A DNA stretch of 44,097 nt from Bdellovibrionales bacterium (lineage in GTDB: Bacteria > Bdellovibrionota > Bdellovibrionia > Bdellovibrionales > JAMPXM01). Each line of letters starts with the position of its first letter. Within the stretch, counting starts at the first letter, position 1. The notes beneath the pieces are model-generated. The model had not been told where the DNA came from, made no database searches, and saw only the letters and a list, made by a program, of their open reading frames with translations. Where the stretch lies: contig JAYUEN010000211.1 of NCBI GenBank assembly GCA_043739185.1, positions 1 through 44,097 on the forward strand, written 5' to 3'. This document shows, one piece after another, positions 1 to 42,002 of the stretch. The translations under genes and the position numbers were made by a program.

Positions 1-126
1 AATCTCCGAAAATGCTTTGAGAATTTTGGTTCATCGCAATCAGATTCAAGTTTTCAGATTCGGAAGGAGACTCCGATTTCGGCTGAGTGATTGTCAGGCC
101 CTTTTCATCAAGAAAGGAGCCTGATT

Positions 127-1218
127 ATGGCAATCACGCCGTACATCGAGGATGGAAAGAAATTTTACGAAGTGTATGTGAATGGATCAGATTCTAGAGA
201 CCGTCGAGTTCAGCGACGAAAAAAAGGAATCGACACTTTAAGAAAAGCGGAAACACTTGAGTTTGAATTGAAGCGCGAGCTTGCTAAACTCAGAGAAGAG
301 GCCGTCTCTTATCGCTGGGGTGAATGGTACGACGAATGTCTTAAGCGTATGAAAATTAGCATGAGCTATTCATCAACCAAAAACTACGAGACGCAGCTTA
401 AGAAATGGGTTTCACCAAGGTGGGGCAACCTAGAGATTAAGAAAATCACGAAGACCCAAGTTCACAGGTTGGTGTTTGAAGAACTAGATCAAAATCTTTC
501 GCCTAATACAAAGCGAACGATTCTTAAGATGATCAAAAGAATTTTTCAAATGGCACTTGAAGAGGGTATCGTTGATCGCAACCCTTCAATGGGTATTCAA
601 ATGAGAGTTCCTGAGTCTGATGCTAAGGTGCTCACTAATTCAGAAGTTGAGATCTTTCTTAAGGAAGCACGAAAAGCAAATCATAGGTTTTTTCCAATAT
701 GGTTTTTAGCTTTGGCTTCTGGGATGCGCTCAGGAGAATTGATGGCCTTATGCTGGCAGGACATAGACTTTGATCAACGGACCATTTCTGTTTCTAAACA
801 GTGGACCAGCAAGACTGGATTTGTTCCAACGAAGACTCAGCGAAACCGAATGGTGCCCATCGCAGACGATCTGCTAAAGTTCCTCAAAGAATTAAAACTT
901 CAAAGAGGGACTGAAGAGTTTGTTCTACCCCATCTCCTTGAATGGGAGAATGGCGAGCAAGCTCGAATCACAAGGGAGTTTTGTACAGCCGTCGGAGTTA
1001 CGCCAGTTAAGTTTCACGACCTTAGAGCAACCTTCATCACGAACCTTCTTTCCCGAGGAGCATCTTTGGCTCAGGTAATGTCCACAGTCGGCCATAACCA
1101 GTTAAAGACGACCAACGGGTACTTAAGAAAGGCCGGAGTGGAAGTTAAAGGACTCACTGATTTACTTGGCTACAAGTTGCCTGATGAGTTGAATAAGGTA
1201 GCCGCCTCACTTGAATAA
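127..1218 (+). CDS. Tyrosine recombinase / phage-type integrase
   Basis: Catalytic R (SGMRSGE), K (PTKT), HxxR (HDLR), H (VGH), Y (NGYL). N-terminal arm-binding-like region. AAGGAG RBS before ATG 127. Confidence 0.95.
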   Translation: MAITPYIEDGKKFYEVYVNGSDSRDRRVQRRKKGIDTLRKAETLEFELKRELAKLREEAVSYRWGEWYDECLKRMKISMSYSSTKNYETQLKKWVSPRWGNLEIKKITKTQVHRLVFEELDQNLSPNTKRTILKMIKRIFQMALEEGIVDRNPSMGIQMRVPESDAKVLTNSEVEIFLKEARKANHRFFPIWFLALASGMRSGELMALCWQDIDFDQRTISVSKQWTSKTGFVPTKTQRNRMVPIADDLLKFLKELKLQRGTEEFVLPHLLEWENGEQARITREFCTAVGVTPVKFHDLRATFITNLLSRGASLAQVMSTVGHNQLKTTNGYLRKAGVEVKGLTDLLGYKLPDELNKVAASLE

Positions 1219-1314
1219 GAGGGGGCTAACTTGAAAAATGACAGAGAAAACGTATTGCTACTTCTTGCTACTCGCAGTATTCGATCAATTGAGATTTCGG
1301 GGGTTTAGAGAATT

Positions 1315-1331
1315 TCCCATCGCCCCGACCA
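1315..1331 (+). mobile_element. tRNA-Pro 3'-end fragment, probable attR of the integrase element
   Basis: TCCCATCGCCCCGACCA matches the T-stem 3' strand, acceptor 3' strand and CCA of tRNA-Pro (..CCGA-CCA). No 5' half upstream. About 100 nt after the integrase stop. Confidence 0.7.
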
Positions 1332-1370
1332 AATAAAAAAACCTTTACTTAAGTAAAGGTTTTTTTATTT
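1331..1370. terminator. Perfect 40-bp palindrome, bidirectional intrinsic terminator
   Basis: AAATAAAAAAACCTTTACTT|AAGTAAAGGTTTTTTTATTT is its own reverse complement, with U-tracts on both strands. Confidence 0.8.
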
Positions 1371-1487
1371 GTCAAGGCATGGGGATACTCGATCTGGGAT
1401 TGATCTGTCGCAGGATCGATCGAAATAGCAGGAGGCTATTTCGAAGGCGCCGCCGCGAAGCGGGCGAGAGCAGGAAGCTCGAGACCC

Positions 1488-1505
1488 ATCCTGTCGCCCC
1501 GACCA
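1488..1505 (+). mobile_element. Second tRNA-Pro 3'-end fragment (att-like)
   Basis: ATCCTGTCGCCCCGACCA; shares TCGCCCCGACCA with 1320-1331. Confidence 0.7.
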
Positions 1506-1617
1506 ATTTTTTGAAGCTGTGAGAGTAAGAAACCCCAAAAAACCAAATGTACTAAGTACATAAAACCATTGAAAAGCGCCTGACATCCTCAGCCCGAATC
1601 TTTCACGAAATGTCGTG

Positions 1618-1667
1618 TGTACAGGTTAAGACATAGGTAACATGAGAGTTTCACTACATAGGTGACA
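1618..1667. mobile_element. IS481-family-like terminal repeat remnant
   Basis: Starts with TGT and carries two ACATAGGT(A/G)ACA subterminal repeats (1631-1642, 1656-1667), a pattern recalled from IS481 ends. No transposase nearby. Confidence 0.5.
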
Positions 1668-1916
1668 TAGTTAAATAGTCGTTTGCTACTTTTTCATCAG
1701 CATTTCGTTTGCAGTTACTCATCTCTGCTAGCCATTTTGTAGAACTCAAAATTATAGGTTCTATGGGCAGGTTCGTAAGATCAGCAATCAAGCCTTATAT
1801 AAGCATAATAAAAATTAAAAAAATAATCCAATCTTCATGTTAAGTCGCTACACGGAAAACTTTACGAATTCAAAAGTATGAGTGGTTAGTCGGGTTCCGA
1901 CTAACCACTCATTTGA

Positions 1917-2243
1917 TCATGACTCATTTTGCTTATCACTCTCAGAACGCGCTGGGGAAGAACAAACGGGATTCTTACGTGATGCGGGTAAGTTCGAGTC
2001 CAAGCTAAAGCTAGCGCTTCGAGCATTGCAAGTGACCGTTCCTTTACTGCAAAAATCGACAGAGTATGGGGCAGGACACATTTTGAATTCACTGCCAATC
2101 ATTGGCAAAATCGGACTATATAAATCTGCAATATCAAATGTTGGTGATGCCTTGCTGACTAACCCAGCAAAGGAAATCGCAAGGATGGAAAACAAAGCTT
2201 GAACTGCCGTTAGATCTAAATTTATTTTACCAGTTTTTCTCAT
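1917..2243 (-). CDS. Hypothetical protein with N-terminal hydrophobic segment and 4 Cys
   Basis: GAGGAGG RBS before ATG 2243; co-oriented with the upstream ORF. Confidence 0.55.
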   Translation of the reverse strand: MRKTGKINLDLTAVQALFSILAISFAGLVSKASPTFDIADLYSPILPMIGSEFKMCPAPYSVDFCSKGTVTCNARSASFSLDSNLPASRKNPVCSSPARSESDKQNES

Positions 2244-2262
2244 TTTGCACCTCCTCATTTGT

Positions 2263-2571
2263 TTAGTTACTTGAAATCATTTGCTTCCAATTTTTATTAT
2301 TTCGATAACTACGCAGGAGATTAAAGTATTTTTCTCTTAGCGCCTGTGTCGTATCGTTGAAGCCATATTTTTCGTGACACAGAATGTACTCAGACCATAA
2401 GACTTTGAGCTCTCTCTCAATTTCACTCAAGTAATCTAAGTCCAATTTCTGGGAGTTGCCACTTTGTCGTAAAGCGTCTCTCGTCTCGTCATTTGAAAGC
2501 CGCGAGATGCTCCCGGCATTTACGTGTGTAAACTCGATTTGGTTCTGATTTGTTCGCATGGTAAACATCAC
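2263..2571 (-). CDS. Hypothetical helical protein (start may be ATG 2559)
   Basis: ORF with GGAGG at 2571-2575; plausible protein composition. Confidence 0.65.
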   Translation of the reverse strand: MMFTMRTNQNQIEFTHVNAGSISRLSNDETRDALRQSGNSQKLDLDYLSEIERELKVLWSEYILCHEKYGFNDTTQALREKYFNLLRSYRNNKNWKQMISSN

Positions 2572-2637
2572 CTCCGTTCAAAATGAGAAACATATACAGA
2601 TACCTTTAATATTTGGATCACCTATCGATCTAACTCT

Positions 2638-2666
2638 AGAATGAGATCACCATTTAACTTGTCAAG
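2638..2666 (-). promoter_or_regulatory. Putative promoter CTTGAC-N14-TCTCATTCT (sigma32-like)
   Basis: Same boxes and spacing as the divergent copy at 2721-2749. Confidence 0.55.
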
Positions 2667-2720
2667 TGGCCAAGTATATCATTGAAATCATTGTATTTTT
2701 TAAAAATTGCCGCCAGCAAA

Positions 2721-2749
2721 CTTGACGACGTAAAACTCCACCTCATTCT
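2721..2749 (+). promoter_or_regulatory. Putative promoter CTTGAC-N14-CCTCATTCT (sigma32-like) for the Hsp20 gene
   Basis: Resembles RpoH consensus CTTGAA-N13-15-CCCCATNT; 38 nt before the Hsp20 start. Confidence 0.55.
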
Positions 2750-2787
2750 TTGAAAAAATAACCACGTAACTTAACTCTGGAGGTAGT

Positions 2788-3441
2788 ATGAAAGAGATAA
2801 TAAAAAAAGTGGCTGTACCATTAACAAGTGCAATTGTCGGTGGGCTTGCTGTCATTGCAGCACTTAGGCTTAGTCCTTCAATTCGACATAAAATAAAGGT
2901 CGATAAAGATTCCGCCCAACATGATGGGCAGATTTACGACGATATCATAAAACAACAAGAAGCTATTAGACGCCAGTTCGACGATTTATTTAAAGAAGAC
3001 TTTTTAGCCCAAAATGATCCATTCGAAGAAATGAAAAAAATGCGAAATCAAATAGGAAAGCACAGGGAACGACTTCATGGAAAAAATCAATCAAAGGACA
3101 ACTCATTTGATTCATGGTTTTCGGATAAATTCGGAGACGGAAGCATAAATGACATTTCAAAAAGAGAGGATGATAACTTTGTTTACTATGACGTTAAAAT
3201 AGACGACGTCAACTCTACTTCAATTAATACAAAAGTTGAAAATGGGTACGTAAGGATCAGCGGAACAATTGAGAAAAAATCCGATTCCGAAGAGAAAGAC
3301 AAAAGTTATTCAAGTCATAACCTATTCAAATCTTCGTTTGATCGGACCTTCCCACTTCCAGAGGATATCGATCAAAATAAAATGCAAATGATAACCGAAA
3401 AGGATAAAATTATTTTGAAATTTCCAAAAATAAAAGTTTGA
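2788..3441 (+). CDS. Hsp20/alpha-crystallin family protein with N-terminal membrane anchor or signal
   Basis: C-terminal alpha-crystallin pattern (KVENGYVRISG...FDRTFPLPEDID...IILKFPK); hydrophobic N-terminus; GGAGG RBS. Confidence 0.88.
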   Translation: MKEIIKKVAVPLTSAIVGGLAVIAALRLSPSIRHKIKVDKDSAQHDGQIYDDIIKQQEAIRRQFDDLFKEDFLAQNDPFEEMKKMRNQIGKHRERLHGKNQSKDNSFDSWFSDKFGDGSINDISKREDDNFVYYDVKIDDVNSTSINTKVENGYVRISGTIEKKSDSEEKDKSYSSHNLFKSSFDRTFPLPEDIDQNKMQMITEKDKIILKFPKIKV

Positions 3442-3517
3442 GGTCCCTTAAAGGGTAAGTAAAGGCATAAAAGTTTCATAAGCTATATCTATCCCCCCAA
3501 CCTGCATGAACTCTTTT

Positions 3518-3552
3518 AAGTGACTGTCTCAACTTTAGACAGTCACTTTTTT
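3518..3552 (+). terminator. Intrinsic terminator after Hsp20
   Basis: 12-bp stem AAGTGACTGTCT/AGACAGTCACTT, 7-nt loop, U-run. Confidence 0.8.
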
Positions 3553-3760
3553 ATTTTAAATTGAGTGCGTCACTAAGCTTTTTATTTCACTAAAATTTTA
3601 AAACTTAGGTCTAATTTTCAAAAAAAATAATTGCGTGTGCTCTTGACTTTTTTTTCAGCGATCCGAAAATTAGCTTAGAAACAGCAATACGATTGTAAAA
3701 GCTGTAACTTCTTAATTCTATCTATTTCCGTACGTCTTTGACGTATTGAGGGAGGTACAA

Positions 3761-3802
3761 GTGAGAATTCCGTCAGGAGTCCCACCGAATCTAGTTCGGT
3801 AA
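3761..3802 (+). CDS. Putative 13-aa leader peptide MRIPSGVPPNLVR
   Basis: GGAGG at 3751-3755, 5 nt before GTG; TAA at 3800-3802; lies upstream of the HPF-like operon. Confidence 0.35.
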   Translation: MRIPSGVPPNLVR

Positions 3803-3915
3803 GCAAATCCCAATTAAATTTCATTTTAAACTTATTTTTTGTTCGAGCTTCATTCCAATGAGGTTTTGAATACAAGCATTATGATTTAACAGACGTTTAG
3901 AGAATTGGAGGTGTT

Positions 3916-4242
3916 ATGAATCAAGAAAATATGCAGTTTGAATTTATGGGCTTCGATCCGGATAGGGATATTAAGGCGTTCATTTCAATTGTTGCCGAGA
4001 GGCTTCACCTGAATGCTCCGAGCGATTCAACGCTAAAATTAGCACTCCAAAATGGTAAGGACGCCATTCGCGTTTCTTGTCGAATTGTTTCGCGGGTTGG
4101 AACCTTCGTTGCCGAGGCTGTCAGTGATAGCCAAATGCGTGCCGTGAAACTGGTCGAACAAAAAATGAGAGTTCAGTTAGACAATTGGAAGGCTTGGCGT
4201 TTTCAAAATAATGCAAATATGCCATTTCAAAAGCTTCAATAG
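3916..4242 (+). CDS. HPF/RaiA (S30EA)-fold-like protein 1
   Basis: About 100 aa with a beta-alpha-beta-beta-beta-alpha pattern and basic C-helix (FVAEAVSDSQMRAVKLVEQKMRVQL); GGAGG RBS. Confidence 0.65.
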   Translation: MNQENMQFEFMGFDPDRDIKAFISIVAERLHLNAPSDSTLKLALQNGKDAIRVSCRIVSRVGTFVAEAVSDSQMRAVKLVEQKMRVQLDNWKAWRFQNNANMPFQKLQ

Positions 4243-4251
4243 GAGGATTTT

Positions 4252-4605
4252 ATGGATCTATTTAATCAAGAGCTTATGTACGAACTTCATGCCAAAGACC
4301 TGACACAGATCGAGGCCCTTAAGCAGTATGCCGACCATGCAGTGAAAGAAATTAAATTCACGTATGGCTGGGACGCTGATGTACAGATTCACATAGAGCC
4401 AGAGGCAAAAGATAAACATCTTTTTGCTGTTGCCATGAGCGTATGCGGATTGGGTGAGCCAATCCTCGTACGAAAAGATGGAAAGCACGTGATGTCAGTG
4501 CTGCGAAAGGTAAGAAAGGCCGTCATGAGGCAAATCCATCGAGTGAGTGAAAAGAGAGTAACTAACCGAAAACGAAATTTTTTAAGAGAGCAATTCGCTT
4601 CATAA
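4252..4605 (+). CDS. HPF/RaiA (S30EA)-fold-like protein 2
   Basis: ELHAKDLTQIEALKQYA resembles HPF ..ITEALREFV; basic C-helix VLRKVRKAVMRQIHR; AGGAGG RBS. Confidence 0.7.
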   Translation: MDLFNQELMYELHAKDLTQIEALKQYADHAVKEIKFTYGWDADVQIHIEPEAKDKHLFAVAMSVCGLGEPILVRKDGKHVMSVLRKVRKAVMRQIHRVSEKRVTNRKRNFLREQFAS

Positions 4606-4622
4606 CTTGAGAGGAGGAAATT

Positions 4623-4976
4623 ATGATTTTAAATGACGTAAAAATTTATTTTGAAGGACTAGAAATGAACCACGACTACGACGAAAAGATTCGTCAGCTC
4701 GTCGACGCGATTAAGCTACTTTCGCCTACTCCGGATATCAGCATAAGGTTTCTGAAAAGCCGAAATATCTACGAAGGACTTCTTTGGGGAAGAGCCGGTG
4801 ATATTCCAATTGGCTTTTACCATCGCGGACATTCTATAGCGCAAGTTTTAGAGAGCCTTAATAAAAAAGTAAAGAAGGAGTGCTTGCTCAAGCTTTGGAA
4901 AATGAAGGGGGCTGAAATGAAGTCTAGACAAAAACCTCAATTCCAAAAACAACCGCCAATGGCGATGGCTGGTTAA
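4623..4976 (+). CDS. HPF/RaiA-fold-like protein 3 (divergent)
   Basis: Same predicted secondary-structure order and length (VKIYFEGLEM...IAQVLESLNKKVKK); GAGGAGG RBS. Confidence 0.55.
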   Translation: MILNDVKIYFEGLEMNHDYDEKIRQLVDAIKLLSPTPDISIRFLKSRNIYEGLLWGRAGDIPIGFYHRGHSIAQVLESLNKKVKKECLLKLWKMKGAEMKSRQKPQFQKQPPMAMAG

Positions 4977-4994
4977 ATATTTTAGGAGGACAAA

Positions 4995-5453
4995 ATGAAT
5001 CAGTTAACAATACTAAAAAAAATGAGAGGATTAAAAGCAACTCAAACGCAACCTGCGTTTAAGAAATCGAAACCCTATTCAGAAAATATTCTGACTCCGG
5101 TTAGTTTATCGGGAGTCATTTCGCCGTGGATTGAGAATCTTGGCGTGGCTCACACTTCAGACTATAAGCTTATTAGCTACAACGGTCTTGAGTACTTCAT
5201 CGTCGCCGACCCTGAGTGGCGAGAAATTTTATCGACCTATTGTTGGGAGGAAGTCAAAGTGATCGGCCTTCTCAATATTTCAAACATGACCTTGATTCCT
5301 CAAAAGGTTTATCCGAAGGGCCCTTCGGGCGAAAAGGAAAGCGTGATCGAGTGGGCTTCTTCGAAAAGCGATGAGCTTGTGAAAAAAATGATTGAAAATG
5401 TAAACGACTTAGTGGTTTTGCCAGCAACCGCCTCGACGGCAATGGCGGCTTAA
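4995..5453 (+). CDS. Hypothetical protein, OB-fold-like; paralog of the next gene
   Basis: LSGVISP..YKL..EYFI..WEEVKVIGLLN aligns with 5484..5951; AGGAGG RBS. Confidence 0.7.
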   Translation: MNQLTILKKMRGLKATQTQPAFKKSKPYSENILTPVSLSGVISPWIENLGVAHTSDYKLISYNGLEYFIVADPEWREILSTYCWEEVKVIGLLNISNMTLIPQKVYPKGPSGEKESVIEWASSKSDELVKKMIENVNDLVVLPATASTAMAA

Positions 5454-5483
5454 ATTAAGGTTCAGCTTAGAGAGGAGGACAAA

Positions 5484-5951
5484 ATGTATTTCGAAAATTC
5501 TTTCACCCAAGTATCACCAGCGCTTTTACGAAATGAATCAGCTCAGTTCAATCATAGTATGGAGACGTTCCATGATATATTTCAGCATACGCTGAATATT
5601 AAGTCAGGATCTCGTCCTCCTAAAATTGAACTTACTGGAATTCTTATTCCTTGTAATAAAATGATTCAAGGCAAGTTGTGCAGATTCAAACTTGAGACCA
5701 AAACAAACGAATACTTCTTGAGCTTGAGTAGCGGGCTCGCGCTTGTCGCAAAAAAGATTGCATGGGAGGATATAACGGTTAAAGGCAGATTGAATATTGA
5801 TAGTAATCTATTTGATGTTGATAAAATGAGCCTTTTACAAAAGACGGAGAACTTCAAGCTCCTCAGAGGGCCTGTCGATTCATATTTTGAACTTGATCAA
5901 TACAAGCGGACAATTGTTCAGAGAGGTAAACTGGATATTGCTAGCGACTAG
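5484..5951 (+). CDS. Hypothetical protein, OB-fold-like; paralog of the previous gene
   Basis: LTGILIP..FKL..EYFL..WEDITVKGRLN; same AGGAGGACAAAATG start context as the previous gene. Confidence 0.7.
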   Translation: MYFENSFTQVSPALLRNESAQFNHSMETFHDIFQHTLNIKSGSRPPKIELTGILIPCNKMIQGKLCRFKLETKTNEYFLSLSSGLALVAKKIAWEDITVKGRLNIDSNLFDVDKMSLLQKTENFKLLRGPVDSYFELDQYKRTIVQRGKLDIASD

Positions 5952-6167
5952 TTGGAATTTCAAAATGGGAAGTTTGGGGCTTTTTTGGCCAATTTGTACG
6001 AAGCCTCAATGTTTTAGCTATAATTTGCGTAACCAAGTCATAAGAGCGGTAGAGAACCGCTTGGCGCAGTCTATCTTGCCTTTGATTTTCCTCTAATATG
6101 GCCACTCTTTGCGCAGCTCGTCTCATTGCGAATTTTCGGGTTAGAAAAATTGCCTTAACAAGTATTT

Positions 6168-6851
6168 CTAAAGCGTTCCTACGCAAGCCCACAAGAGGGC
6201 GTGAGCCAACCCCGGACGAATCAAAGATCGGTCCCGACCTCTCGACAGGCCAAAGATGATTCCTAGCGCGAACTTTCCAATAAAAATCGGTAACTGAAAT
6301 TTCAGATGATAGGCCGCAAAAATAAAACTTGTGAAGAAGAGCCCAAACACAAAACCAAACTTTTGAATTGCGGTGGGCTGTAGAAAACCTCTAAAAAGAC
6401 TTTCTTCGATAAGACCGGCATTTAATCCTATCAATAAAAACACGATTCGGTTTGAAAAGCTAAACTTCATTTCTTCGCCGATGAACTGTTGCTCATCCCA
6501 GGTTCCAAAAATTAATCCAAGCAAATAAACTATACCTACTGCGACCGCAGCACCTGCAACCCCATAGAGAACGTCCAACTTTAAATTATCAACTCGCCAG
6601 CCAATTTGCTCGAGAGAAAGTCCGCCAAGCTTTATAATCCCGAGACGCAAAACTAAAAACGCCCCGATTAAAGTGTAAAATACGACAAAGATCGCAAAAC
6701 CAAGATCAAGCTGGGCGAATGGATCTTCGACCTTCGCTAAATAGGCATAAAGGCTTATCGAAAGCACAAATAGAGCAGCTAATGAAACTGCCAACCCGAG
6801 ACCGAGAAATATCTTGCTATTCGAGTCTTTGAAATTTTCATTTGTGTTCAT
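6168..6851 (-). CDS. CPBP/CAAX-type (Abi) intramembrane glutamic endopeptidase
   Basis: EExxFRG (EESLFRG), FxxxH (FAAYH), late H (HALLW); multiple TM helices. Confidence 0.92.
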   Translation of the reverse strand: MNTNENFKDSNSKIFLGLGLAVSLAALFVLSISLYAYLAKVEDPFAQLDLGFAIFVVFYTLIGAFLVLRLGIIKLGGLSLEQIGWRVDNLKLDVLYGVAGAAVAVGIVYLLGLIFGTWDEQQFIGEEMKFSFSNRIVFLLIGLNAGLIEESLFRGFLQPTAIQKFGFVFGLFFTSFIFAAYHLKFQLPIFIGKFALGIIFGLSRGRDRSLIRPGLAHALLWACVGTL

Positions 6852-7001
6852 CCCATTAGCTTCCCTAGCTATAACCGAACGGTCAACATTCTAATTTCTC
6901 TGAAACCAAGATCGTTATCGCGGCAACGGTCTTTTTAAAGCCTCATTAAGGGGAAAAAAACTTTTTCTGGTTTTCAAAGTTGGGGACAAATTTGAGCCCG
7001 T

Positions 7002-7520
7002 GCAGCCAGCGAAAATGTCCCCGGATTCGAGCGGTCAGGTGAGCTGGCATATTTGAAGCAGCGGATTGGCCTCGCCAGACCAGGCTCCGAAATGGGCTTT
7101 ACAAAGCCAAATGCATGGATCTCTCGCTGACTGATCCTCAAAATCTTTTTGCTGAACTCGACAATAAATATCACGGCAAAGCTCCCGCAGGAATATTTAA
7201 GATCATGAAAAATGAAAATGCGAATATAGAAAATATATTCAAGGAGCTCTCAGCAGAAGGTGGCGAGCTCTGTCAGGGTTTTAGATCTGACGATTTTAGT
7301 TTGTTAGGCGATGGCCTTTCTAAAACATTCACCTACAGGACAGTCTAATTTTGAAGCCAAAGAACTCCCTCATTGTCTTGATAAAACTCTAAAGACCGAA
7401 GTGTGTCGCGTGAACCGAGTAGCAGCTGTCGCTCGCATATACAATAACTGGGTCATTCAAAACTGCAGACCTTCTTCAAACGGAAAATTGGCTCCAAAGC
7501 CGCAGCTAGCAGATCAATGA
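7002..7520 (+). pseudogene. Possible degraded gene remnant
   Basis: Short protein-like ORF pieces in successive + frames (7115..7348, 7311..7520); no family recognised. Confidence 0.25.
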
Positions 7521-7619
7521 AGCTGAAAACTGCATAAGCTAGCAGGACCAAACTCATGCTCGCTGAATAGTGCCTTTCTAGACTTGAGTTAGCCATCAAA
7601 ATTAACTATTCTTTAAGAA

Positions 7620-8105
7620 GTGAAATGGATGGCTGTTTTTTTATTTTTAGTTAGTCAAGCCTCGGCATTGGATACTGCCCAAATGATACCGATTTCTTGT
7701 AAAAAAGCTGTCGAGAAAGATTCTCTTAAAATACGGGGCAGAATCCAAACAAAATGCGGGTCTGGAAATTTCTGCTTAACTCAAGCCGAGTGTTTTTATG
7801 TAGATCGAAAGATTTTAGAAACCGAATATAATAATGATCCATATAGGGCCTTTCGCGGTGAAGGCTATATAGGTACTCAAATTCGGTCTTTTTTTGAAAA
7901 AAATGGGGGAAATCCGCGACACTATACAAGTGAAGTCAATATTGCCTGCTATTCTGAAAATTCAGACACGTGTCCTCCCTTACTTGAGTGTTTAAAAATG
8001 AAGAATGTGTTGGACGGTACACTCAAACATTCTAAATACGAAAGTGATGAAGAAGGTACGATTCCTCCGCTATACCCCAACTTACCGCAACGTGCCACCC
8101 ATTGA
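7620..8105 (+). CDS. Secreted Cys-rich hypothetical protein
   Basis: Short Sec signal ending ASA; 7 Cys. Confidence 0.7.
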   Translation: MKWMAVFLFLVSQASALDTAQMIPISCKKAVEKDSLKIRGRIQTKCGSGNFCLTQAECFYVDRKILETEYNNDPYRAFRGEGYIGTQIRSFFEKNGGNPRHYTSEVNIACYSENSDTCPPLLECLKMKNVLDGTLKHSKYESDEEGTIPPLYPNLPQRATH

Positions 8106-17820: not shown

Positions 17821-19308
17821 TCAGTCTGCTGAAATATGAAATATCCTGTCTTGAATCAGAGGTAATAATGTTGTTTCATACATAAGTGGATCACTATAAA
17901 AAACAAAGTGATCAATTGCAAAGAGAGCATCCTCGGCAATGACGACTCCATAAAAATTGCCATAGTAACGGCTATAAACCTTTGGGGCATTTAACAAGAG
18001 ATGTTTGAAATCAATGGTCTTGCGCTGATAACTTTTCGCCCAGTCGATGCTACAAGGCGCGACAATAGGGTCACCGCAAGTTGAGGCATCCGGAATGCTC
18101 GTTTGGCCAGGAGCAGGCAGCCACTCTTTGGTGTCAAAATCATCTTGAACGGCGACAATATTACCTGTTTTGTCCTTCATGACCCGAAAAGGACCAGCAT
18201 CATTTGTAAGGCCATCGACAGAATCTCGGTCTTCTATAATTTTAATGTTCTGAGCAAGCTCTTGATCATCTGTCCAGGTGCTTCTCATTCCACTCACCAT
18301 GGCAGTAGTTGCATCTTGAGTTAGGCGCGTGCTGAGTGTTTTCATCCCCATTATAATAGCTCGTGAACTTGAAATTTGAAGATTCGAACCACTTCCCTCG
18401 CCCTTGGTATAATTGATTGGGCCCTGAATGAAAACGCTGCCAGTAACATGAAGTCGACAACCCTTGCTATCTGTATCGAGGTTAAGATTGTTGAGTAAAA
18501 CAACTCCATCTATGATGATGTCGCCTCGGCAATGAACGATGTCTGTATTTGTGAGAAAGAGATGACGGTTCAAGGAGCTCTGTTTGACGATGAACCCATC
18601 GGCTGAGTCACGTGCGCTCGCCTTGTAAACAATTATGCCTAATTTTGCAAAAATTTGCACGGCACCCGGGGCCTGTTGCAGAGATCTCATTTCATCTTCT
18701 GAAGGGGAATCTATCCAAATTTCCTTTCTGCTAAGAAAATTTCCTCGTAGCCCGGGTACACTTATGTCCGTCGAATTTGTCCTCTCAATAATCGAGACTG
18801 GAGTCGCCCCATTATTAATCCAAGGATTTAAAAATTTTCCGTTTAGGAAATCAAGGATGCGCAAAGAGCTAAGAGGTTTTGCATTTCCGGCTATTGGATC
18901 ATTATAACTAGCCAACAAACGTGCGTCCCCGATAGTTTGATCTGGGACATAGACATCACCCATGATACTTGAATTTTTCCAGAGGGCATCCATCCAAGAA
19001 AAGTGTTTGCTCGCAAATGGACTATAATATGAAGCTTGTTGAGGGTGGTTGACACTTTTATCTGTGCCCATGAAATAGGGACTTCCAAATCCGAAGTCAG
19101 TAACAATATCGCCATGAATTTGTGCGTGACACATAATGCAGGCAGTATTTCGAACTGCGAGAACTGGCTTTAGAGGGCCAAACAAAGAGCCAGTAGACTG
19201 AAGATTTTGTGAGAGCGGGTCTAAACTAATGTTAGAGCAATTCTGCGCCCCAATTATGATGGCTAAAAGTAAAAGAGCAATTGAGAATTTAGTTTTCAAA
19301 TAATTCAT
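17821..19308 (-). CDS. Lipoprotein (AQNC) with one CxxCH; paralog of 40695..42002
   Basis: Lipobox-like GAQNC; CIMCH; beta-rich C-terminus. Confidence 0.8.
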   Translation of the reverse strand: MNYLKTKFSIALLLLAIIIGAQNCSNISLDPLSQNLQSTGSLFGPLKPVLAVRNTACIMCHAQIHGDIVTDFGFGSPYFMGTDKSVNHPQQASYYSPFASKHFSWMDALWKNSSIMGDVYVPDQTIGDARLLASYNDPIAGNAKPLSSLRILDFLNGKFLNPWINNGATPVSIIERTNSTDISVPGLRGNFLSRKEIWIDSPSEDEMRSLQQAPGAVQIFAKLGIIVYKASARDSADGFIVKQSSLNRHLFLTNTDIVHCRGDIIIDGVVLLNNLNLDTDSKGCRLHVTGSVFIQGPINYTKGEGSGSNLQISSSRAIIMGMKTLSTRLTQDATTAMVSGMRSTWTDDQELAQNIKIIEDRDSVDGLTNDAGPFRVMKDKTGNIVAVQDDFDTKEWLPAPGQTSIPDASTCGDPIVAPCSIDWAKSYQRKTIDFKHLLLNAPKVYSRYYGNFYGVVIAEDALFAIDHFVFYSDPLMYETTLLPLIQDRIFHISAD

Positions 19309-31948: not shown

Positions 31949-32380
31949 TCAATTGGGGTGGCGATTATTGGCGTAATAAATCAATACTGACCAAGCCAAA
32001 ACTACGATAGGTCCGATTGCAAAATTAAAAATCTTATCGGACTCAGATAATTTTTCTTTAGAAAAAAAATACCAACCGCCATTTTCTGAATCCTGAACCC
32101 GATAATTACAAATTTTAAAAACCGGCACAAAGAAAAAAGTAAAGGTAAGTGTTGAAAGATAACGGCCCTCTGAATCCAAATCTTTTTTTCCAAGGAGTCT
32201 CAGGCCAATCCCATTGATCGTCCGAAGAAAAGGGGGTTTTATTGAGGGTGTGAATTCAGGCGCTTCAGAATTTTGAACTTGCTTCATTTTCGATGCAAAC
32301 CTTTCTGGCAAATGGATGCTCTCAGGTGAACTATTAAGTTTCGTCCACAGTCTTGGTTCTCGCCTTTTCTGAACCGTCAT
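31949..32380 (-). CDS. Hypothetical membrane protein
   Basis: TINGIG..TFFFVPV..YRV segment; C-terminal TM. Confidence 0.65.
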   Translation of the reverse strand: MTVQKRREPRLWTKLNSSPESIHLPERFASKMKQVQNSEAPEFTPSIKPPFLRTINGIGLRLLGKKDLDSEGRYLSTLTFTFFFVPVFKICNYRVQDSENGGWYFFSKEKLSESDKIFNFAIGPIVVLAWSVLIYYANNRHPN

Positions 32381-33533
32381 TCATATATTCTATTTTTTCA
32401 ATTTCTTTTCCTGATTGAGCATCGTAGATACTTTTGGTTTTCGGCTTTCCTTTTTCCCAAATCGTAACGGTTTTTTGATCTATATCGTAATAGGTAGACG
32501 GGCCATCGCGCAGGCCATTTTTGTAATTATTTTCAATAATAAGCTTTCCGTCCTGGTCATAAACCTTATAGGCACCGACGTATTTGCCCCAATATTCTCC
32601 ATGCTCAAACTTCATGGTATGTTCCGAATACGGCTTGCCTTGATCTGAAAAGGATCGCGCCACTTCAGTTCGAGAGAATTGATCATAGGTTATTTTTACA
32701 ACTTCAGAGATTTTACCATTTTCAAAATAATCAAGACGCTCAGATAGCTTTTCATTTGAAAATGTGCGTTTGCTTTTTTTAGCACCACTTTCAAAAAATT
32801 CTTCTTCACTTTCAGGAAAACCATTTTTGTAGTTTGCCTTCAGCTGAATTTTACCATCTTCAAAGAACTTCTCGTACGCACCAACATATTTACCATTGAC
32901 AAGAGTTGCTTTGAATTTAACTTTGCCGTCCTGATATTTGGTTACGACCGGACGGTTCATTTCTGCGAAGTGTTTTTTGATTTCGCCGTCGATGAAGCTT
33001 CGTACTTCTTTGTCGAATTCAGAATATTTCATATTGAGGCAGGCAGAATAATAAATCGAATCACGATCGCCATTTTCCCAGCAGCCGGGAATGACTTCGA
33101 GTACTTTTCCATTTTCATTTGCCAGAAATTCAACTCCAATTTGTTTTCCTAAGCTAAAATATTTAATCCACCACGCCGTCTTAATATTGTGCCAGCTTCG
33201 AGCAGTTGAAAAGTCACGGTATTCTCCGTCGAGCTGTCCGGCTCTATATTGGGCCCGAATGGTTAAAATATTGGTAAAGGAGCGGCAGATGAATTCGCCA
33301 TCTAATTCCCCGTTGATGAAATTGGCAGATCGCAAGACAATTTTGGGATTGTCTAGGGCATGACAAATCTCACTGCCTTCTTTTCGATTGTGATTGATTT
33401 TCACTTCACATAATTTCTCTTCTGCTTCTTCAAGTTGACAGGCTTTGTAGCCCATTTCATTTGCCTGTGCTTGAAGCTGAACCATGAAAAGGAAAAATAA
33501 AATAATTTTGAGGTTGTGTTTGATTGTATTCAC
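32334..33533 (-). CDS. Secreted MORN-variant repeat protein (YwqK-like)
   Basis: Repeated YKNG..G....Y/F..NG units; signal peptide. Confidence 0.85.
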   Translation of the reverse strand: MNTIKHNLKIILFFLFMVQLQAQANEMGYKACQLEEAEEKLCEVKINHNRKEGSEICHALDNPKIVLRSANFINGELDGEFICRSFTNILTIRAQYRAGQLDGEYRDFSTARSWHNIKTAWWIKYFSLGKQIGVEFLANENGKVLEVIPGCWENGDRDSIYYSACLNMKYSEFDKEVRSFIDGEIKKHFAEMNRPVVTKYQDGKVKFKATLVNGKYVGAYEKFFEDGKIQLKANYKNGFPESEEEFFESGAKKSKRTFSNEKLSERLDYFENGKISEVVKITYDQFSRTEVARSFSDQGKPYSEHTMKFEHGEYWGKYVGAYKVYDQDGKLIIENNYKNGLRDGPSTYYDIDQKTVTIWEKGKPKTKSIYDAQSGKEIEKIEYMNDGSEKARTKTVDET

Positions 33534-34327
33534 TGGCCATCTCCGTAAATCTGAATCGCTTTTTGTAGTCCATCTTGATAAGTTTTTGATGCTTCTTGCA
33601 TTTTTTGTGATTTGACTTCAGGTTTATCTGAACTTTTTTGTATGCTCGCCATTTGATCTTGAAGCCATTTAGAAAGTCGAGTGGTCTCAGTTTGGTAGAC
33701 TTCGGCTTTCTTTTTTGCGCGCGTTTGAACTTCAGTGACTTGCTTTTTAATTTTCTCTTCTCGGTTTTTGGCTTCGAGCTCACGGTTTTCATCACGTTCT
33801 TTTTCTTCATTTCTTCGCGATGCTTCACGCTTTTCTTCGCGCGATTGAACATTTAAATTGAATAGTTTTTGCAACTCTTCTTTTACAAAGGCCGAGTCGG
33901 ATGGGCCGGGGCGTTCACTGCGAAAATCATTTGAAAGGTCCGCTGAAAACATGAGGGAGCGTCCCACAAGCTTGAGCTGGCGCTGATCCTTTCCTCCCAA
34001 TTGGCAATGAAGAGTATCAACTTTGGCTAAGATACTTTTCGTAGAATTCAAATCTTTTTGACAAAAATCTGCAATTTGTTCGAGTGGTATCAAACAAGGT
34101 GATATCGAATAATCACGGTTTGCAATTAAATAGTTTTTAAAACCAGGCCAATCTATTTCGACGCCTATGCCTTTCTTGCAGCTATTTTGGAGTTTCTCTT
34201 TGAGCTGTGCGAGTTGGTAAATCAGAGTGCCACGTTCTCGGCAAAGTTCGACGTCGACTACGCAATTTGCGAAAAGACGAAATGGTATAAAGTGCAAACA
34301 AATTATTAGAGAGAGCGCTCTCTTCAT
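33530..34327 (-). CDS. Secreted Cys-rich protein with charged coiled-coil C-terminus
   Basis: Signal; 6 Cys in the mature N-half; E/K/R-rich helix. Confidence 0.75.
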   Translation of the reverse strand: MKRALSLIICLHFIPFRLFANCVVDVELCRERGTLIYQLAQLKEKLQNSCKKGIGVEIDWPGFKNYLIANRDYSISPCLIPLEQIADFCQKDLNSTKSILAKVDTLHCQLGGKDQRQLKLVGRSLMFSADLSNDFRSERPGPSDSAFVKEELQKLFNLNVQSREEKREASRRNEEKERDENRELEAKNREEKIKKQVTEVQTRAKKKAEVYQTETTRLSKWLQDQMASIQKSSDKPEVKSQKMQEASKTYQDGLQKAIQIYGDGQ

Positions 34328-34490
34328 TTTAGATTCCTTTGTCAGTTGAAACAATTGAGATGAGAAAATTGTGGCTCAAGAGATTCATCACAGTCAAATC
34401 AATTGGCAATATATGACGTCGACCTTGGTCAAGCTGAAGTTTGTGCAACTTCAATAGTTTAGATAGAATTAAAAAATTTGTTCTTTTGGA

Positions 34491-34539
34491 CTTGAAGTAC
34501 GCAAAATGTACGTATAGCTTGAAGTACGGCAAATGTACG
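34491..34539. promoter_or_regulatory. Tandem 22-bp direct repeat, each containing GTAC-N7-GTAC (operator-like)
   Basis: CTTGAAGTACGCAAAATGTACG (34491-34512) and CTTGAAGTACGGCAAATGTACG (34518-34539). Confidence 0.75.
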
Positions 34540-34565
34540 AAATATTATTTTTTTCAGGAGGAAAA

Positions 34566-34955
34566 ATGCAAAGTCTAATCGCCAATCCAGCAAAGGTTTT
34601 GGGTTTTATTGGTCGTCACAAAGCAAAGGCCAACAGGGCTAAGCTTCAAGTGCCATTTTTATTTATTCAAGATGGTGAGGATTATTATTGCCTGAGAGTT
34701 TCAGGGGATTCAATGATTAGTAGTCGCGCTCGAGACGAACAAGATGATGTCGTGCTGGTTAAAAGGACAGAGGAGGCTAAAAATGGCGATATTATAGTCG
34801 GAGTAGTAGATGGTACGCCAATGCTTAAAAGATATCATAAGTTTGAAAATCGCATTGAATTGCATTCGACAAATTTTCAAAGTCGACCCATTGTAGTAAG
34901 CGCCGAGACTGATTTTCGAGTCGCGGGAATTTTTGTCGGCCACTTTAAAGAGTGA
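34566..34955 (+). CDS. S24 (LexA/UmuD-type) peptidase-domain-only protein
   Basis: LRVSGDSM catalytic Ser, MLKR catalytic Lys, AKNGDIIV; no HTH; AGGAGG RBS. Confidence 0.85.
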   Translation: MQSLIANPAKVLGFIGRHKAKANRAKLQVPFLFIQDGEDYYCLRVSGDSMISSRARDEQDDVVLVKRTEEAKNGDIIVGVVDGTPMLKRYHKFENRIELHSTNFQSRPIVVSAETDFRVAGIFVGHFKE

Positions 34956-40694: not shown

Positions 40695-42002
40695 ATGTAT
40701 CATAATCAAACATTTAGATATTTTAGTTTATTGATCATAACAGGTCTACTCATGATCAATTTTCAGAACTGTCAGAGTTCTTACAGCTTTGATCCGAGTG
40801 TCACTCAAAACTCACTTTCTGATCCCGGCGGAGGGTCAACGTCAACAGGTCATACACTTAAAACCATGAAGCCAGCTCTTGCGGTTCGAGGAGTTGCTTG
40901 CCTGTTTTGTCATGCCGATGTTCGGGCCAATGTGATAACTGATTTTGGTTTTGGAGATCCTTTTTATCTCGGCAATGATATGGCCTTAGACGGTGTAGAT
41001 GGAAGTCCTCAGAGCTGGTACAACAATGATGCACATACATGGCAGTCGATGAAAAATCTAAATGGCACGGTCATAGTGCCCAATCAACTTATTCCTCAAC
41101 ATGTACAAGACTCAATGGGAGTGACAACTGCAAATGGTGCCCCTCCTATGAATATTGAAGGTATGTTACGAATGCCCTATCAAGCGACTTGGAATTGGGA
41201 CCTTCAGCAAGATGGCTCTTCGACCTTGTATGCTCAACAGGGCCAAGGCTCTATGCTTATGAAGGTGCAGCCGCAAGCAGGTCAGGCGCAAGTTGTCTCG
41301 GTCAAACACATACTAATTAGCTCTCCCAGTGAAGCCGATATCAATTCGATAGCGGGTGGTCTGGCAACGGATCTGGTGATACGTGTGGGTAATAGGGCTC
41401 CCGTGCAGTTTGTAAATGTAAACGGGACCAGCGGCACCTATATTGCCAACGATCCCACGCAAACACTTCAATGTTCAAATTCAGATATTGTAGTGAGGGG
41501 AACTTTGTATTTGCGAAAGTTAAAATTGAATGCCACTGGCGGTTGTCGCCTCTATGTCACAGGTTCAGTATTTATCGAGGGAAATATTTTTTATTCAGAT
41601 AGCGGAGCAACCCAGAATTTGCAAATTACCAGCGCAAACGCCATTATCATGGGCATCAATCATGATCACCTAGTACAAAGATGGAATGACCGCAGATTGG
41701 CCGCAATTTCAGACCCTCTTCGTAATTTTGATAGTCGCTTTCAGCAAATAATAGATGAATCAGTAAATATCGGAAGTTTAGCCGATGCCGCCGACGCAAG
41801 CCCTCGTACTTCAATTGATTATCATGGGCTTTTGTTAAATGCGCCAATTATTGAGGGTCGTTATTTGGGAAGTATTCGAGGAACCATCATTTCGCAACTT
41901 GCACTTTTTGCTCTTGAGAATTTTCATTTTGTTTACGACGAGGTTTTTAGCAATGTTGACGTATTTCCGCTACTTACGAAACCCATACTTCTGGTTGAAT
42001 AA
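40695..42002 (+). CDS. FQNC lipoprotein with one CxxCH; paralog of 17821..19308
   Basis: FQNC; KPALAVR..CLFCHA..TDFGFG; GCRLYVTGSVFI; LLLNAP. Confidence 0.82.
   Translation: MYHNQTFRYFSLLIITGLLMINFQNCQSSYSFDPSVTQNSLSDPGGGSTSTGHTLKTMKPALAVRGVACLFCHADVRANVITDFGFGDPFYLGNDMALDGVDGSPQSWYNNDAHTWQSMKNLNGTVIVPNQLIPQHVQDSMGVTTANGAPPMNIEGMLRMPYQATWNWDLQQDGSSTLYAQQGQGSMLMKVQPQAGQAQVVSVKHILISSPSEADINSIAGGLATDLVIRVGNRAPVQFVNVNGTSGTYIANDPTQTLQCSNSDIVVRGTLYLRKLKLNATGGCRLYVTGSVFIEGNIFYSDSGATQNLQITSANAIIMGINHDHLVQRWNDRRLAAISDPLRNFDSRFQQIIDESVNIGSLADAADASPRTSIDYHGLLLNAPIIEGRYLGSIRGTIISQLALFALENFHFVYDEVFSNVDVFPLLTKPILLVE

Follow-up and report, generated by a model that had tools for sequence, protein, structure and literature searches.

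The stretch of DNA analysed here (the window, 44,097 nucleotides) makes up contig C211 in the 4.85 Mb assembly (G000) of a bacterium of the order Bdellovibrionales. It carries an operon of five small genes, which is preceded by a structured leader and by a short open reading frame (ORF) with a diproline motif, and lies next to a gene encoding an Hsp20-domain protein. A first-pass annotation, made from the sequence alone, had described the five genes as three HPF/RaiA-fold genes followed by two OB-fold-like paralogs. Coordinates are collected in Table 1.

Table 1. Features of the operon and of the region upstream of it (window coordinates)
Feature	Position	Strand	Remarks
Integrase	91-1218		Pfam
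att-like duplication, tRNA 3' end and flank	1488-1617	+	95% identical to C234:34949-35078; 94% to C497
Small ORF	2263-2571	-	12 distinct loci matched by tblastn (E<1e-9) in 70 regions scanned; below the cut-off of every Pfam family
Hsp20-domain protein, hydrophobic N-terminus	2788-3441	+	PF00011, E 1.1e-6; usual upstream neighbour
Terminator-like site	3518-3548		Between Hsp20 gene and operon leader
Predicted sigma-70-type promoter	3643-3670	+	TTGACT-N16-GAAAAT; supported by conservation
Structured 5' leader	3678-3760	+	Hairpin predicted to bury the Shine-Dalgarno sequence of the leader ORF (GGAGGT, 3751-3756)
13-codon leader ORF	3761-3802	+	MRIPSGVPPNLVR; Pro-Pro-Asn motif; putative translation
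Predicted hairpin between leader ORF and gene 1	3840-3874	+	In minimum free energy and centroid structures
Gene 1	3916-4242	+	108 aa; divergent HPF/RaiA-fold protein; motifs PSD and W-K-x-x-R-F
Gene 2	4252-4605	+	117 aa; probable HPF-fold protein; last helix very basic; C-terminus AS
Gene 3	4623-4976	+	117 aa; possible HPF-fold protein; C-terminus AG
Gene 4	4995-5453	+	152 aa; OB-fold paralog of gene 5
Gene 5	5484-5951	+	155 aa; OB fold at about residues 41-120, helices on either side; no signal peptide

The five ORFs are co-oriented, are separated by gaps of 9, 17, 18 and 30 nt, and have GGAGG 5' of every one, as had been noted. The strong divergence of genes 1 to 3 is real, BLASTP finding no similarity between them, and so is the paralogy of genes 4 and 5 (BLASTP E 0.003; profile-profile comparison 95%, E 3.5e-8). 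A second copy of genes 1 to 4 resides on C225 of the same assembly (protein identity 82–92%), and a second copy of the Hsp20 region on C522. Given an assembly contamination of 3.7%, these second copies could belong to a second organism. The ratio of nonsynonymous to synonymous changes (dN/dS) between the two copies within the assembly measures 0.37 for gene 1, 0.09 for gene 2, 0.23 for gene 3 and 0.14 for gene 4; as judged by these comparisons, the operon genes are real and under purifying selection. Searched singly against Pfam and NCBIfam, none of the five window proteins matches PF02482 or an OB family, and the gene families are largely invisible to Pfam. In-frame fusions inside the operon join the start of gene 3 to gene 4 (L013), gene 2 to gene 5 (L061), and gene 4 to gene 5 (L123).

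Folds and C-termini of the operon proteins

The predicted model of gene 1 (pLDDT 89.5) has the HPF/RaiA fold (Foldseek E 6e-7). It is made by a single domain, the C-terminal dimerisation domain of long HPFs being absent, and the products of genes 1 to 3 measure only 108–117 aa. Window proteins do not reach the gathering score of PF02482; an ortholog of gene 1 at 50% identity (G040:C112) passes the Pfam cut-off. The profile of gene 2 matches solved HPFs over the full length (E 0.006), and more weakly when a deeper profile is used (E 0.54). In hhalign comparisons gene 2 is related to gene 1 (71%, E 4e-5) and to 30 canonical HPFs of the order (63%, E 7e-5), the OB families used as negative control scoring 3% and 0.1%. 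These weak but full-length matches make gene 2 a probable HPF-fold protein. Gene 3 connects by hhalign solely to genes 1 and 2 (10–60%, E 9e-5 to 5e-3); the match to gene 2 measures 60% (E 9e-5), and 20% with a deeper alignment. No significant match of gene 3 was found to PDB sequences, canonical HPFs and one bridging HPF, and the Atlas provides only a lead (0.82), a cluster in which 18% of the members carry PF02482. The three HPF folds of the first-pass annotation are thus confirmed for gene 1 by model and Foldseek, and probable for gene 2 by profiles; for gene 3 the match is weak and the fold unproven.

At least 10 HPF-like ORFs reside in the assembly at E<=0.01, gene 3 being excluded from the count. 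Stand-alone HPF-like ORFs are found on C116, C386, C498, C76 and C358, and only those on C116 and C386 pass the Pfam cut-off; they suggest a hidden expansion of HPF-fold proteins throughout the order. Fusions of a gene-1-like HPF-fold domain to a receiver domain have been identified in the assembly (G000:C94:39232-40014) and at L132:5667-6665 and L144:5892-6476. The L132 fusion carries an N-terminal membrane segment; the C94 fusion adjoins Hpt-like and sigma-54 response-regulator genes.

The AlphaFold2 model of gene 5 (pLDDT 81.8) shows an OB barrel at residues 41–120, which matches the OB domains of SSB, PriB, RPA, ExoVII and AspRS, as well as YgiW and SilF (Foldseek best E 2.8e-3; VIA Z 8.8, with a root-mean-square deviation of 2.8 over 72 aligned residues). 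YgiW and SilF, which are non-binding OB folds, tie in score with the SSB/RPA-type matches. The Atlas model of gene 4 (pLDDT 0.51) matches DUF5818 clusters, and DUF5818 (PF19135) is matched by 2 of 70 members of the gene 5 family (best E 0.001). The OB-fold call, which had been made by eye, holds for gene 5 by the model and for gene 4 by paralogy and the Atlas model. On these models, the two proteins are OB beta-barrels of nucleic-acid-binding type, the binding itself being putative. No cold-shock domain is present among the fold matches listed for gene 5, nor PF00313 among the families matched by the 70 members. A periplasmic OB protein of the YgiW type was considered and is disfavoured by the lack of signal peptides; a hydrophobic N-terminus is found in 4 of the 70 members. 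At L132 and L144 the OB gene lies directly 3' of a gene for an ABC-F (Uup-like) ATPase, accompanied at L144 by a DEAD-box helicase gene.

Many of the proteins end in AS, AG or AA. Such C-termini are found in 17/27 members of the gene 2 family, 70/85 of gene 3 and 41/70 of gene 5; they mark 14/30 canonical HPFs, 3/63 members of the gene 1 family and 73/3496 background ORFs. The window gene 5 stops a few codons before its relatives and ends in the residues SD. The ends of genes 2, 3 and 5 presumably resemble ClpX-type protease tags; a tmRNA tag found in the order has LAA as its last residues.

The leader region

The leader was found by aligning the 420 nt upstream of gene 1 at 26 loci. Together with the diproline ORF and the AS/AG C-termini, this conserved leader RNA is an addition to the first-pass annotation. 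The aligned regions share a TTGACA-type hexamer, a CTTCTTT tract, and AAGGAGGT with a start codon behind it, some 100–160 nt before gene 1. The leader ORF is present in 20 of the 26 regions, and 5 of the other 6 have no such site altogether. A wider scan of 72 regions for short ORFs led by a ribosome-binding site (RBS) and containing PP yielded 37 candidates, of which 6 off the leader position were dropped, leaving 31 leaders. As PP was a requirement of the scan, the unbiased count is 20/26.

In the 31 leaders a TTGAC(A/T) hexamer is located 85–128 nt before the ORF, and in most of them a T run comes after it. The promoter call rests on this conservation; in the window alone promoter-like sites occur at chance level (8 found, 8.1 expected). 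Downstream, the family helix ACUUCUUU/AAGGAGGU pairs the CTTCTTT tract with the Shine-Dalgarno (SD) sequence of the ORF, 95.6% of cells being paired across 30 of 31 leaders. Changes in this helix are one-sided only, two-sided covariation is absent, and U-G pairs occur; since the SD cannot vary, the pairing is consistent with a helix and is not a covariation proof. In the window copy the SD is predicted to be buried through a shifted register. Predicted melting of the SD helix is restricted to some members, the window copy not being among them. Rfam gave no match near the gathering score over window positions 1–8000. A covariance model of the leader matches 15/151 genomes, four matches falling outside the sequences of the model itself. 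Of these four, two place the hairpin directly on a gene 1 or gene 3 homolog that lacks the ORF, one has the ORF with neither hairpin nor operon, and one looks false. A match of the RNA model at L163 (E 0.002) was dropped since it has no leader features. An orphan promoter and leader ORF, with neither hairpin nor operon, are found at L160:1576, convergent on an ada/ogt-like gene.

The peptide motif G[IV]PP[NDS] is encoded by 27 distinct leader coding sequences. Its residues are specified by 4 Gly, 3 + 3 Pro and 2 Asn codons, third positions being free, and the distance from the second Pro to the stop is four codons in 24 of the 27. In four distant leaders PP is retained within a different context (IPPP, APPE, HPPP). 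Of the 836 short ORFs with an RBS in the genome, only the two operon copies encode G[IV]PPN. The ORF stays with the operon also when the first gene is gene 2, the OB gene or others. By these alignments, the leader ORF is a short RBS-led ORF in which a Pro-Pro-X pause motif is conserved at the peptide level. In the available parts of studies on E. coli, PPN and PPD rank among the strongest EF-P-dependent pause motifs (PMC13602936; PMC4140641), and only a small share of PPX motifs cause a pause, context being important (PMC4140641). The genome encodes EF-P.

Hairpins of unrelated sequence are predicted in many relatives at the position of the hairpin located in the window between leader ORF and gene 1. 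The SD of gene 1 is G-extended (GAGGGG) in 11/20 loci with the leader ORF, compared to 2/50 downstream genes. Two further candidates for the spacer and leader were rejected. A Rho-type C-rich spacer does not fit, C exceeding G in only 4/28; a two-state switch based on a CAGGGC/GCCCUG helix reaches p<=0.05 in 10/29 leaders, and not in the window copy.

Distribution and neighbouring genes

Gene counts across kin are given here as descriptive figures. The named relatives of gene 1 belong to the Bdellovibrionales. The gene 1 profile matches 211/384 genomes of the order, and 29 places at E<=1.1e-29, hereafter close loci. Gene 2 is next in 22 of the 29 and absent in 5, and in 2 the contig ends there; an OB gene is present in 14, and all five genes are intact in 5. 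One of these 5, with the same five-gene order, belongs to another family at 22–39% identity (L066/G057). A near-complete version with leader (hsp20, leader, genes 2 to 4) resides in a single-contig genome (G102, locus L139). The OB profile matches 36/384 genomes of the order. Selecting by OB gene provided 28 further regions, or 26 new loci after dropping 2 repeats; an HPF-like gene lies within 3.6 kb at 15 of these, in several arrangements, Hsp20 occurs at another 4, and the remaining 7 carry neither. The co-occurrence of the genes in other genomes, which the first-pass annotation had named as one test of its proposal, is largely borne out. Gene 3 matches 8/401 genomes of a phylum sample, strong matches being all inside the order. 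Gene 2 was not found in 3 genomes of the same genus, and no relative of gene 1 was found in the plasmids and viral contigs searched.

The Hsp20 gene reported beside the operon is present, and an Hsp20 gene accompanies 15/29 close loci by Pfam or hidden Markov model, with 3 more of the hydrophobic-N-terminus type recognised by eye. In the window it is probably transcribed separately from the operon. Relatives mostly carry a cytosolic Hsp20 gene upstream too. In the C522 copy and in relatives this gene follows the hydrophobic-N-terminus one, and it is missing from the window (3441–3607). Other recurring neighbours are an SDR oxidoreductase gene, often 3', and genes for ClpB, a ferritin/Dps-family protein and DegP-like proteases. 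A second small reverse ORF (1917–2258, minus strand), of no known family, is kept upstream of hsp20 in 4 related loci.

The integration site placed beside the operon by the first-pass annotation is also real, as it features an integrase gene and a tRNA-end duplication, whose match on C234 follows an intact tRNA gene (tRNA-Pro, read by eye). The operon would lie in, or just beyond, an element inserted at a tRNA site. A tRNA or tmRNA gene occurs in 5/70 related regions. Two att-like tRNA-end repeats are found near the window integrase; a near-perfect palindrome (1330–1371, region 1311–1389) lies 3' of it, and integrase fragments 94–95% identical reside on C304 and C510. Other genes of the window were read by eye. 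Two secreted proteins (17821–19308, minus strand; 40695–42002, plus strand) look alike, with C-xx-C-H near the N-terminus, and are possibly c-type cytochrome paralogs. A MORN-like repeat protein (32334–34354, minus strand) adjoins a DUF-like coiled-coil protein, and beyond the latter is a LexA/S24-type peptidase gene (34533–34955) with no obvious DNA-binding domain.

Possible function of the operon

The analysis directly supports the genes themselves, the fold of gene 1 and that of gene 5, and the association with Hsp20; the promoter, the hairpin, the leader peptide and the AS/AG ends are conserved. The operon is tentatively viewed, with somewhat less than even confidence, as an inducible ribosome-protection module conserved in the Bdellovibrionales and gated by translation stress, behind a diproline leader ORF. 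The hairpin would limit the loading of ribosomes onto the leader ORF until opened by heat or by a bound factor. A ribosome would pause at Pro-Pro-Asn, for longer when EF-P or prolyl-tRNA is scarce, and the pause would change the expression of downstream genes in either direction. The HPF-fold proteins may bind the 30S decoding channel, or an rRNA site nearby, via their basic second helix, and may divide among themselves the contacts of one ancestral HPF; the OB proteins may bind single-stranded RNA in trans, the counterpart of what the Coxiella protein HPFcold does in cis through its cold-shock domain; the small C-terminal residues may mark the proteins for removal on recovery. A fuller version is unlikely, though worth stating: a feedback circuit in which stalling at Pro-Pro-Asn switches on a split hibernation apparatus of three HPF-fold and SSB-like OB proteins, working with small heat-shock proteins and cleared through the tags, as part of the order-wide expansion of the HPF fold. 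An obligate five-part complex accounts less well than a modular operon for the presence of the intact set in only 5/29 close loci.

Silencing of ribosomes by the operon proteins is to be judged against the residues through which known HPFs act. According to the accessible part of a study of S. aureus HPF, four basic residues (K27, R30, K84, R87) are involved, binding is lost only when all four are changed, and either basic pair alone still permits it (PMC4889938). In S. aureus numbering, the canonical HPFs of the order, which are short (95–132 aa), keep the equivalents in 27, 25, 30 and 23 of 30. The four positions are basic in 38, 0, 51 and 26 of 63 members of the gene 1 family, in 0, 2, 0 and 23 of 27 of the gene 2 family and, under an assumed register, in 1, 1, 12 and 12 of 12 of the gene 3 family. 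By sequence, genes 1 to 3 fail the four-residue signature of the HPF family.

Several observations weigh against the view of the operon as a ribosome-protection module. None of the proteins has the full patch, the window gene 1 keeping two residues, gene 2 one and gene 3 two (in the assumed register). The R30 equivalent is the position most affected, basic in 0/63, 2/27 and 1/12 members of the three families versus 25/30 canonical HPFs; the K27 equivalent is acidic in 26/27 gene 2 members, and the Tyr that canonical HPFs of the order conserve in their D-x-Y motif is lost in genes 1, 2 and 3. Gene 3 is only possibly of HPF fold, and gene-1-like domains are fused to receiver domains among two-component genes. 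The OB fold of gene 5 is like that of SSB/RPA and YgiW, unlike a cold-shock domain, and its median isoelectric point (pI) is 6.2. As to the leader, 6/26 gene 1 loci have no leader ORF, predicted SD pairing in the window copy hardly changes from 25 to 55 C, and at two loci, of a distant gene 1 homolog and of a gene 3 homolog, the hairpin lies directly on the first gene with no ORF. Two candidate mechanisms received little support: a stall opening the SD of gene 1 would change modelled pairing only from a mean of 0.75 to 0.68 (0.75 to 0.72 in the window), and Pro codons acting as a specific anti-SD for gene 1 show cognate pairing in 8/14 (p 0.38). The kin compared, moreover, are not independent. 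On the other side, the basic residues of helix 2 are partly retained (K84 equivalent in 51/63 gene 1 members, R87 equivalent in 23/27 gene 2 members, both in 12/12 gene 3 members), and the three families are basic overall, with a median pI of 8.8–9.8. Partial loss of the patch does not exclude the ribosome, because either S. aureus pair alone still allowed binding.

The main rival, somewhat unlikely as a whole, holds that the HPF fold has been repurposed, the proteins being unstable RNA-binding or adaptor regulators which act off the decoding site as mRNA-specific repressors, or with two-component or chaperone partners, and whose own binding site may be the leader hairpin. The fusions of gene-1-like to receiver domains, found in this genome (C94) and at L132, point to other uses of the HPF fold in the order, and homologs of genes 2 and 4 reside among Hpt, receiver and kinase genes at L140. 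This rival is also favoured by the loss of the helix-1 basic residues and of D-x-Y together with the gain of new invariant residues (P35-S36-D37, F64, W91, R95), by a canonical HPF kept elsewhere in the genome, as in 59 of the 61 genomes examined, and by the hairpins directly 5' of the distant gene 1 homolog and the gene 3 homolog. Helix 2, however, remains basic, some gene 1 orthologs, as in G040:C112, still pass the PF02482 cut-off, and HPF fusions are treated as hibernation factors in the portions available of the papers describing them (PMC13392368; 10.1101/2025.11.04.686544). It is improbable that the proteins are hibernation factors with an incidental leader ORF, controlled by the promoter or by a thermometer-like hairpin, the Pro codons being kept for RNA pairing. 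The G-extended SD of gene 1, the loci lacking the ORF and the U-G pairs of the SD helix agree with such a view, but third positions vary freely while residues are fixed, the spacing from PP to stop is constant, distant leaders retain PP, and no preference for cognate pairing is seen.

The location near an att site bears on two other explanations. That the operon is cargo of a mobile stress island, most paralogs being redundant and decaying, is consistent with the patchy spread (36/384 genomes for the OB family, 0/3 same-genus genomes for gene 2), the many deletions and fusions, and the tRNA or tmRNA genes in 5/70 regions; dN/dS values of 0.09–0.37 and the five-gene order maintained in another family at 22–39% identity make it highly improbable. 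An anti-phage system shutting off translation, which the first-pass annotation had raised, finds in the adjacent integrase an argument in its favour. No PADLOC match was obtained for any of 7/7 proteins, and the genes that recur nearby encode chaperones, proteases and an SDR oxidoreductase, so that phage defence is very improbable.

Precedents exist separately for additional hpf copies, for HPF fused to stress domains and for leader peptides with prolines. Short HPF/RaiA proteins (YfiA, PF02482) share 12–23% identity with the proteins described here, whose basic patches are incomplete, and which are encoded by two or three paralogs in one operon with its own leader ORF, the canonical HPF being kept separately. 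In Coxiella HPFcold the HPF domain is likewise paired with an OB-type domain, a cold-shock domain which, in the part of the report available, protects the 16S anti-SD (PMC13392368); here, in contrast, the OB domains are encoded by separate genes and match SSB/RPA/YgiW-type folds and DUF5818, the listed matches including no cold-shock domain. Chan et al. (10.1101/2025.11.04.686544) describe, in the accessible sections, HPF truncation accompanying extra copies in other phyla. The operon is similar in having a truncated ancestral HPF and extra copies at variable, mobile loci; it differs in that the main text of that paper never mentions Bdellovibrio, Hsp20 or heat shock, though its supplements may list these genomes, and sections 7, 9 and 10 contain no tandem paralog operon or leader ORF. 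In MgtL (mgtA) and SecM (PMC12856214), prolines of a short upstream ORF slow the ribosome and control downstream genes, as those of the diproline ORF would here. The likeness is one of description, and there are differences: the spacer is not C-rich (C>G in 4/28), the SD of the ORF is itself predicted to be buried, and the target is a ribosome-factor-like operon. Gene 5 shares the OB barrel at residues 41–120 with SSB, PriB, RPA and DUF5818 (PF19135) proteins, and differs in having extra N- and C-terminal helices, nucleic-acid binding being putative. The literature search found no description of the locus or of extra HPFs, HPF fusions and proline leaders combined, and no paper on hibernation factors of the Bdellovibrionales.

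Hibernation factors are controlled mainly by starvation and stress regulons, and predatory Bdellovibrionales switch between an attack phase, in which they do not grow, and a growth phase inside the prey. Because Pfam largely misses these families, surveys that counted hpf copies will have come out too low. The near-complete version in the single-contig genome G102 (L139) indicates that cultured material may exist. The diproline leader ORF, if true, would tie the synthesis of hibernation factors directly to the status of elongation.

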